Sequence record: PP925845.1
Source of the DNA: Escherichia phage BananaBelafonte
DNA length: 51,510 bases
Strand: one strand, 5' to 3'
Below, piece after piece: positions 29,534 through 30,032 of this stretch. Position numbers and translations under genes: made by a program. Each line of letters starts with the position of its first letter. Within the stretch, counting starts at the first letter, position 1. The notes beneath the pieces were generated by a model. It was not told where the DNA came from and made no database searches. It worked only from the letters and a program-made list of their open reading frames with translations.

Positions 29534-29580
29534 CTCCTTAGTTAATCAATGCTCACACTATACACCAAACCGCGCGGCAG

Positions 29581-29600
29581 GTTTAGCAAAAAGTGCTGAT
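29581..29600 (-). promoter_or_regulatory. conserved element upstream of minus-strand AT-rich cluster
   Basis: On the minus strand reads ATCAGCACTTTTTGCTAAAC, then 22 bp to TATAGT, then RBS AAGGAGG and the ATG at 29533. Confidence 0.5.
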
Positions 29601-29974
29601 TGTTGTTTTTTGTTCCACGATGTTCACGAATTTGCGGAGTCTTAAATTTAGCTCAAAAAATGAGCAGATTTGGCCGCTATATATATATGAGTAATACTAT
29701 CTATATATATAATAAGTAAGGCTTTTATTTATTATAGTATGATATTTGTTTCTTTTTGTTCATGCTGTTTCATATGGTTTTGGGTGGCTGGCATGATTTC
29801 GGATGGTTTATATAGGGTGAGTTGCTAAAAGGTGTGTTTATATCTCTTAGGGTAATTCCGGCGTGAACATGTGAACGCGAAAACAACAACCTTTGATATC
29901 ATGCGCTTACATTGTGATTTTGTTTTCAATCCAGATTGTGAACGTACAGAAAACAGAAAAATACAAAACAGGTA

Positions 29975-30002
29975 TTGACTAAACGCTCAAAATGGCTAGA
30001 AT
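29975..30002 (+). promoter_or_regulatory. sigma70-like promoter for recombination operon
   Basis: TTGACT (29975-29980), 16-bp spacer, TAGAAT (29997-30002), about 30 bp upstream of the exonuclease gene. Confidence 0.55.
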
Positions 30003-30032
30003 GCTCATAAACCAACAAATGAGGATGATTCA

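Follow-up and report, generated by a model that had tools for sequence, protein, structure and literature searches.

Phased TGT repeats flank an AT-rich block upstream of the recE-like gene of a T1-like phage: a candidate replication origin with a twin at the genome ends

We analysed the intergenic region upstream of the recE-like exonuclease gene in Escherichia phage BananaBelafonte (sequence record PP925845.1), which we consider here as a candidate origin of replication. The whole stretch of 51,510 nucleotides is called the window, and positions refer to it unless another genome is named. The window is the genome, complete or nearly so, of a T1-like siphovirus (Drexlerviridae); its closest record is Klebsiella phage KLB26, and its gene order agrees with that of T1. 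The gap under study (29528-30032) separates a leftward gene of 103-105 aa from the rightward exonuclease gene (30033-31091). The former most likely starts at the ATG at 29527 rather than at the GTG at 29533 that appears in the mechanical list of open reading frames (ORFs); it is part of the cluster that holds cor in T1. Downstream of recE follow erf and then ssb. T1 has a matching gap of 527 bp, with cor on one side and recE on the other.

The 499-bp gap sequence could be aligned to 195 phage records, 126 of which cover at least 80% of the query, with identities of 65-72%. We aligned 46 recE-upstream regions from IMG/VR and GenBank, and scored column conservation over 18 representative relatives. 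Islands conserved across subfamilies comprise the promoter of recE (the best conserved), TGT/ACA triplets, pieces of an AT-rich block and an ATCA...TT motif, and in megablast searches similarity to distant genera begins exactly at 29861. Our best reading of the gap is a cis-acting assembly region that has been kept in T1-like phages at large. The gap is 75% identical to that of KLB26, versus 98% for the adjoining leftward ORF. When 29400-30032 is compared with KLB26, identity drops abruptly at the gene start despite about 90% identity over the 1.2 kb compared, which suggests either that the non-conserved spacers turn over very fast or that the start of the gene marks a recombination boundary.

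A preliminary description of this DNA had called the gap a non-coding divergent control region, and we agree: promoter elements face outward at both ends, and none of the eight small ORFs (29-39 aa) within it has its frame, start and stop preserved across relatives, so the gap is taken to be non-coding. Salmonella phage PMBT35 and a few other records do carry annotated hypothetical proteins of 30-70 aa here, but their frames, starts and stops are not conserved, and most of the 195 matching records have no annotation in the gap. A structured non-coding RNA finds no better footing. The best Rfam score at a permissive threshold was 19.9 bits against a threshold of 90; RNAalifold returned zero consensus base pairs for a 15-sequence alignment of 29850-29980; and single-sequence folding of the gap was insignificant for the plus strand (z = -0.71) and marginal for the minus strand (z = -2.15), the latter because oppositely oriented repeat arrays pair with each other. 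That the gap encodes small proteins or a structured RNA is accordingly regarded as highly improbable.

The unit conserved in the gap is a short one, namely hexamers of the form TGTNNN/NNNACA at 9-10 bp spacing, which make up four arrays with at least 12 sites. Array A (29601-29627, plus strand) consists of TGTTGT (29601), TGTTCC (29611) and TGTTCAC (29621) with 10-bp spacing; its TGT cores at 29611 and 29621 show a conservation of 90% or more, and T1 carries TGTAAC, cGTATA and TGTAAC at the homologous positions. Array B (29747-29771, plus strand) consists of TGTTTC (29747), TGTTCA (29757) and TGTTTC (29766) at 10- and 9-bp spacing. It abuts the AT-rich block directly, its TTGT and TGT cores are at least 90% conserved, and T1 has TGTAAC, TGTATA and TGTAAC at this position. 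Array C (29863-29888, minus strand) comprises GTGAACA (29863), GTGAACG (29871), GAAAACA (29879) and AACAACA (29882). Here ACA at 29867-29869 and AC at 29875-29876 are conserved; relatives have GGAACA, GTAAACA or GAGAACA, and T1 has GTTACA, GTTACG and TAGACA. Array D (29921-29970, minus strand) begins with a forward TGTTTT (29921), followed by the reversed sites GTGAACG (29938), GAAAACA (29949) and CAAAACA (29964), and ends 4 bp upstream of the -35 hexamer of the recE promoter; the homologous T1 sites are TGTAAC and then TAGACA, ATTACA and ATTACA.

The phasing of these sites was evaluated over 16 representative gaps. Same-strand TGT/ACA pairs occur 62 and 45 times at lags of 9 and 10 bp, as compared with about 9 expected (z = 17 and 12), although these scores overstate independence because the 16 gap sequences are related. 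In a scan of the whole window, phased TGT/ACA pairs cluster in two places only: the gap, with 5 per 373 bp, and a twin region at the genome ends, with 5-6. The mean over the genome is 0.26 (standard deviation 0.6), and other places reach 2 at most. When T1 was scanned in the same way, its gap and genome-end region again ranked top.

While the TGT core is invariant, its flank is clade-specific: TGTTC or TGTTT in the window, TGTAAC in T1, and AGAACA or TAAACA in other clades. In the T1 gap, TGTAAC/GTTACA occurs 7 times versus 0.19 expected (P = 1.6e-9), in part as TGTAAC-N10-GTTACA dyads, and four of the six TGTWACA heptamers of the T1 genome fall within the recE gap. Flanks that change from clade to clade in this manner would be expected if the sites co-evolve with a binder encoded by the phage.

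The preliminary description had singled out a different repeat, GTGAAC, in three direct copies and one inverted copy. All four are present: the plus strand carries the word at 29863, 29871 and 29938, the minus strand at 29622-29627; the positions given earlier for the third direct copy and the inverted copy (29937 and 29621) were one base off. Over the window GTGAAC occurs 27 times versus 24 expected, so there is no genome-wide enrichment. Four copies in the 499-bp gap compare with 0.23 expected (P ~1e-4), and this local excess is lost after correction for the approximately 2,080 possible hexamers among which the word was chosen post hoc. Three of the four copies are altered (GGGAAC, AGGAAAC) or lost in KLB26. 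A lack of conservation of the repeats in relatives, together with a lack of protein binding and of origin activity, had been named as what would refute the preliminary reading; as regards conservation the outcome is mixed, in that the exact GTGAAC word is unconserved and what is conserved is the arrays around it, in their TGT/ACA cores, phasing and positions. Judged by sequence, the GTGAAC copies are the best-matching members of the arrays in the window phage, the inverted copy belonging to array A, the first two direct copies to array C and the third to array D. The broader suggestion that short repeats in the gap are compatible with operators or iterons appears sound for the arrays, whose cores are invariant and phased at homologous positions. 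The true repeat unit of four arrays and at least 12 sites had been omitted, as had the putative integration host factor (IHF) site, the genome-lowest stability of the AT-rich block and the twin region, all of which are dealt with below.

Arrays A and B flank a block of TATATA runs (29677-29745), a candidate DNA-unwinding element with an A+T content of 84-88%; these are the alternating AT tracts already noticed in the preliminary description. By nearest-neighbour free energy, no duplex in the 51.5-kb window is less stable than the AT block at 40, 60 or 100 bp, the 100-bp value being -104 kcal/mol versus a genome mean of -142.7 kcal/mol (standard deviation 7.1), with the lowest stretch at 29677-29777. 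The homologous AT block of T1 is the second least stable duplex of that genome, the first being the T1 genome-end region. The TATA islands of the block are conserved among the representative relatives. Between array A and the AT block, at 29651-29678, a small hairpin GCTCAAAAAATGAGC is found together with a minus-strand terminator-like stem. Both are confined to the window-type clades, and GAACAA/AAACAA sites in reverse orientation take this position in other clades.

Between arrays C and D lies an IHF-like site, TATCATGCGCTTA (29897-29909, plus strand), which differs from the consensus WATCAANNNNTTR by one mismatch. Of 48 relatives, 45 carry a match to the consensus (30 exact and 15 one-off) whose position relative to the recE start is -133 to -141; it is on the plus strand in window-type clades and on the minus strand in T1-type clades. 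Exact matches to WATCAANNNNTTR are few, 2 being found over the window and 5 over T1, the latter including the site in the recE gap. The four N positions vary freely and the specified positions are preserved. Such a pattern of constraint would be that of a real IHF site, and 29897-29909 is accordingly a predicted IHF site.

At the right end of the gap, the promoter of the recE-erf-ssb operon (29975-30002, plus strand) consists of TTGACT at 29975-29980 and TAGAAT at 29997-30002, separated by 16 bp. It scores 10 of 12 matches in a consensus scan, and its sequence tATTGACTAaAcGC...GGCTAnAATG is nearly invariant in the 46 relatives, being the most conserved segment of the gap with a mean identity of 0.81; the T1 counterpart is TTGACT-16-TATAAT. 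The near-consensus hexamers, their spacing, the position upstream of recE and the conservation are those of a sigma-70 promoter, in accordance with what had been claimed for the exonuclease gene. At the left end, the conserved module that had been taken for the promoter of the minus-strand cluster is indeed family-wide and faces left, being one of 23 copies of a 21-nt direct repeat known from T1-like phages. This copy (TCAGCACTTTTTGCTAAA, 29582-29599, minus strand, 2 mismatches) points toward the leftward cluster, and the pattern ATAGCACNNNTTGNTAAA has 23 matches in the window versus 0.43 expected. In phage TLS the repeat (consensus aaATAGCACnnnTTGnTAAAA) was described about 76 nt upstream of start codons, with function not known (PMC11447400). 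The copy at 29582-29599 fits that definition (aaATAGCACnnnTTGnTAAAA, intergenic, along transcription), at about 74 nt from the ATG at 29527. Between it and the leftward gene, a -10-like element GTATAGT is present (29557-29563, minus strand), which reads ACTATAC on the top strand and ranks with the most conserved columns in the gap's left half; it may act as the -10 element of the leftward promoter.

Both end elements thus have counterparts in TLS, where only three sigma-70-like promoters were listed and one of them, P51, precedes the exonuclease gene (PMC11447400): the leftward module and the recE promoter of the window are copies of the TLS repeat and of P51. The difference is that the TLS paper has no phased TGT arrays, IHF site, AT unwinding element or twin region (PMC11447400). 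Some further copies of these elements were noted. A degenerate 21-nt repeat (ACAGCACAAATAGCTAAA) lies at 31092-31109, directly after the recE stop and before erf, which parallels the arrangement P51-gp51-DR9-gp52 of TLS. Perfect copies at 14922-14939 and 18656-18673 (minus strand) oppose the surrounding rightward late genes, and the remaining 21 copies appear, by eye comparison with the ORF lists, to run along local transcription. The octamer TATTGACT has 6 copies in the window versus 1.05 expected, at 170, 29973 and 44425 on the plus strand and at three more places; those at 170 and 29973 are the two early promoters. The copy at 44425 lies 22 bp ahead of the holin start codon and is ill-suited as an ordinary promoter because it is too near that start; no comparable gap and no arrays are found at this site.

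The early promoter at 170 belongs to the twin region, which was defined on the assumption that the last base of the record is followed by the first, as in a concatemer. The non-coding DNA of about 51060-51510 joined to 1-232 then forms one region, and this is the top segment of the window for phased TGT/ACA pairs. Its left part (51121-51510) contains a 21-nt repeat (51121-51139, minus strand), the sites TGTTCA, TGTTCC and TGTCTA at 51336, 51345 and 51354 with 9-bp spacing, and an inverted ACAACAAAAAACAACAA at 51384-51400, the last 15 bases of which (51386-51400) agree exactly with the reverse complement of 29600-29614. Next comes an AT block at 51399-51460, the second least stable DNA of the window, and then the sites TGTCAT, TGTATA and TGTTCT at 51461, 51468 and 51477. 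The right part (1-206) has reverse-oriented GAACA/AAACA sites, an A-rich stretch and the promoter cTATTGACTcAAC-17-CACAAT (170-200, plus strand), which precedes the first rightward gene (233). The genome-end region looks like a paralogous second region with the same layout as the recE gap. An equivalent layout is found at positions 100-540 of T1, and in both the window and T1 the gap and the twin are the two weakest duplexes of the genome and its only phased-TGT clusters. The early genes neighbouring the twin region are not conserved among relatives. In the T1 left-end region three TTAACAC repeats with 9-bp spacing were seen at 401-427, and a pair TCGTGTAACAC ... GGTGTTACA at 469-500, just 3' of a TTGACA hexamer and ahead of the first early gene; these two are the only TGTWACA heptamers of T1 beyond the recE gap.

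The two regions also agree in the flavour of their motif. When gap and twin were compared in three genomes (the window, T1 and a TAAACA-type phage), 12 of 17 counts fell on the diagonal (permutation P = 0.0025, with small counts). This result bears on whether host proteins alone might account for the region, such that curved T/A-tract, UP-element-like DNA together with IHF, Fis and H-NS sites would boost the early promoters and no phage binder would be involved. The conserved IHF consensus, the AT-rich centre and the embedding of the window-clade sites in phased A/T tracts (GAAAACAGAAAAATACAAAACA, TTGTTTTTTGTTCC) are in keeping with such a role. However, phages of the same host, E. coli, carry different hexamers at equal positions (TGTAAC versus TGTTC/TGTTT), the sites of the T1 clade are no A-tracts, and the flavour is concordant between two unlinked regions of each genome. 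A role of host proteins only is thus considered improbable. Host response-regulator sites of the ArcA, OmpR and PhoB types were set aside on the ground that the motif differs between phages sharing a host.

Two phage proteins were considered as binders of the TGT arrays. The best candidate is the DUF3987 helicase (46087-47667, minus strand), a candidate initiator with an MCM-like AAA+ core, which would bind through its C-terminal winged helix (about residues 449-519). Alongside this winged-helix helicase (cf. PMC4889955), the phage encodes a primase in a gene of its own. The primase (36998-37957, minus strand) is of the P4-alpha type, with a zinc ribbon (Pfam Zn_Ribbon_Prim, E = 8e-13) and a primase core. 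The alternative candidate is a Cro-like helix-turn-helix protein (38003-38449, minus strand), a homologue of T1 gp23 encoded by the first gene of the primase operon. It has weak Pfam matches to the YdaS, P22_Cro and CI repressor families and belongs to a PHROG named 'transcriptional regulator'; a profile of 12 gp23 homologues matches P22 Cro (1RZS) with E = 0.012, and gp23 shows no similarity to P4 alpha. Both the recognition helix of gp23 and the wing tip of the helicase vary by clade. For the helicase wing there is only a hint of a correspondence with motif type, in the form of acidic residues in TGTA-type phages.

What kind of origin might such a region be? An oriC-like or DnaA-dependent origin and a lambda-type origin were ruled out: the gap has zero TTWTNCACA DnaA boxes even at one mismatch, no GATC (versus about 2.9 expected) and hence no GATC cluster, and no long iterons of the lambda type (about 19 bp). 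A blastn search of the gap against a plasmid collection gave zero matches, so there is no sign of a borrowed plasmid origin. Several features of short-iteron origins are nevertheless present, namely a cluster of phased short repeats, repeats on both sides of an AT segment, and an encoded helicase and primase. The closest comparison is with the origins of Staphylococcus aureus pathogenicity islands (SaPIs), in which 6-12 element-specific penta- or hexanucleotide iterons are placed half on each side of a central AT-rich region (PMC9371898). A self-loading helicase of superfamily 3 (SF3) or of the MCM-like superfamily 6 (SF6) binds these iterons through its winged helix, and a primase gene lies alongside (PMC9371898). 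The window resembles this system in its TGTNNN sites (at least 12), in arrays A and B around the AT block, in its MCM-like winged-helix helicase and in its primase. It differs in that the region adds a conserved putative IHF site and two promoter-side arrays, in that there are two copies per genome, and in that the host is Gram-negative.

In phage P4, the C-terminal domain of alpha binds type 1 repeats of the sequence TGTTCACC. According to the GenBank annotation and sequence, P4 ori and crr, two cis regions, contain such 8-bp repeats in both orientations at 9-11 bp spacing. The window core (A)TGTTCAC(G) / GTGAACA is almost the same word, and the primase encoded by the window shows homology with alpha over the zinc-ribbon and primase part of the latter (residues 20-263, tblastn E = 3e-11). 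In contrast, tblastn found in the window and in T1 no counterpart of the SF3 helicase or of the origin-binding C-terminal domain of alpha, the window helicase being MCM-like, and the word TGTTCAC is limited to window-type clades. The match between the P4 and window words may therefore be coincidence, since T1 has TGTAAC and the alpha domain is absent. We also observed that the P4 origin flanks at 9161-9175 and 9270-9300, GTTTTTTGTTCATC and AAAAACAAACAGTAGTAAACAGCACAAAAAG, are resembled by TTGTTTTTTGTTCCAC and GAAAACAGAAAAATACAAAACAGG at 29604-29618 and 29949-29971 of the window; these resemblances are short and could be compositional.

A third comparison concerns the overall plan. [quoted passage not shown] The location of one is a long intergenic stretch away from the replication genes, and the recombination proteins exonuclease, annealase and SSB take over later (PMC6316719). 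The likeness is in the two repeat-plus-AT-rich regions; SPP1 differs in that its initiator gp38 works with a DnaB-type helicase and loader, and its repeats are other ones, with no homology.

The evidence leans towards an origin, and we put forward, as the most likely reading but at about even odds, that the gap is a replication origin of the short-iteron type, placed between two outward-facing early promoters and one of two in the genome. The events could be pictured as follows. Host RNA polymerase would fire the recE-erf-ssb promoter rightward and the 21-nt-repeat promoter leftward. A phage protein, either the helicase through its winged helix or gp23, would bind the phased TGTNNN sites on one face of the helix. 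Arrays A and B would bracket the AT block, the easiest DNA of the genome to melt, and IHF bound between arrays C and D would fold those two arrays back. Negative supercoiling behind the diverging polymerases would aid opening of the AT block, at which the helicase would self-load, and the P4-alpha-type primase and a host polymerase would begin synthesis. It is only tentatively suggested, with less than even confidence, that T1-like phages in general replicate from two cooperating cis regions, with the DUF3987 helicase loading itself on clade-specific iterons around an unwinding element aided by IHF and supercoiling.

A number of points weigh against the origin. An initiator gene is not adjacent: the gap lies 16 kb and the twin 3.4 kb from the helicase gene, whereas SaPI origins are directly downstream of rep and the P4 crr adjoins alpha. 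The motif type does not map cleanly onto either the gp23 recognition helix or the helicase winged helix, and one phage has TGTAA/TGTAT sites, yet its helicase C-terminal domain is near those of TGTT-type phages. The clade-specific flanks could stem in part from shared descent rather than from co-evolution. The sites of the window are degenerate. Its arrays A and B share one orientation, and the inverted sites that T1, several other clades and the window's own twin region have beside the AT block are missing from the left flank of its AT block. Finally, the place just upstream of the -35 hexamer, where transcription factors typically sit, is taken by arrays C and D, and the gap as well as the twin coincides with strong sigma-70-consensus promoters (29975-30002 and 170-200). 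Because of these last two facts, a purely transcriptional role would account for much of the layout.

We have therefore to consider that the arrays serve transcription control only, being operators or activator sites at which a regulator of the phage works, with the Cro-like gp23 as its most plausible identity. In this case gp23 would switch the recE promoter, the genome-end promoter and the adjacent 21-nt-repeat promoters at the early-to-late transition, and IHF would loop the distal arrays onto the promoter-proximal ones, with ompF and lambda pL as comparisons. Such a role would fit the location of gap and twin exactly at strong TATTGACT-type promoters, the placement of P51 among the few sigma-70-like promoters of TLS (PMC11447400), and the closeness of array D to the -35 hexamer, which array A mirrors by abutting the leftward 21-nt repeat. 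It would also fit the encoded Cro-like protein with its clade-variable recognition helix, the TGTAACA / TGTTACA pair of T1 directly after the left-end TTGACA promoter, and the dyads of the T1 gap. Moreover, the phage is without an RNA polymerase of its own, and so has need of an early-to-late transcription switch. However, near-consensus promoters require no activator, and no site lies over the -35/-10 core, where Cro-type repressors act, all sites being upstream of -35. The sites are mainly direct repeats and not the dyads of Cro/CI-type operators, even though T1 does have dyads. Nor does such control call for arrays A and B, whose distance to the recE promoter is 230-400 bp and which bracket the most meltable DNA of the genome. 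In addition, gp23 of the window and of T1 share the first four residues of the recognition helix (SNQT), yet their motifs differ. Control of transcription alone is the main rival of the origin and is judged less likely than it. It should be borne in mind that the origin and operator models for the arrays are compatible with each other and not exclusive.

As to previous work, the 2024 re-annotation of TLS reported no iteron-like (lambda-type) repeats anywhere in its genome (PMC11447400), and in the paper on phage SU57 an oriC-like sequence was sought and not found. In the accessible literature we found no description of an origin of replication or of an early-to-late switch for T1 or Drexlerviridae, and nothing useful on a T1 origin, its IHF dependence or TGTTCACC. 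The promoter and the 21-nt repeat had already been described in TLS; for the twin regions, the phased TGT arrays, the putative IHF site and the pair of unwinding elements, taken as a unit, we found no description in that literature.

T1 is one of the seven original T phages, and Drexlerviridae rank with the most frequent coliphages. Where the origin of T1 lies now becomes directly testable, with two small candidate regions of about 400 bp each, named sites and candidate binders. If the origin is real, it would be the family's first mapped origin and the first to be assigned to a phage helicase of the DUF3987 (SF6) type, and it would tie the MCM-like (DUF3987) helicases of phages to a defined origin type. 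It would also provide a handle for the engineering of T1-like phages and for the interpretation of defence or escape mutations that fall within this "empty" gap. If instead the arrays are operators, they would represent the missing temporal switch of a phage that depends fully on the host RNA polymerase.

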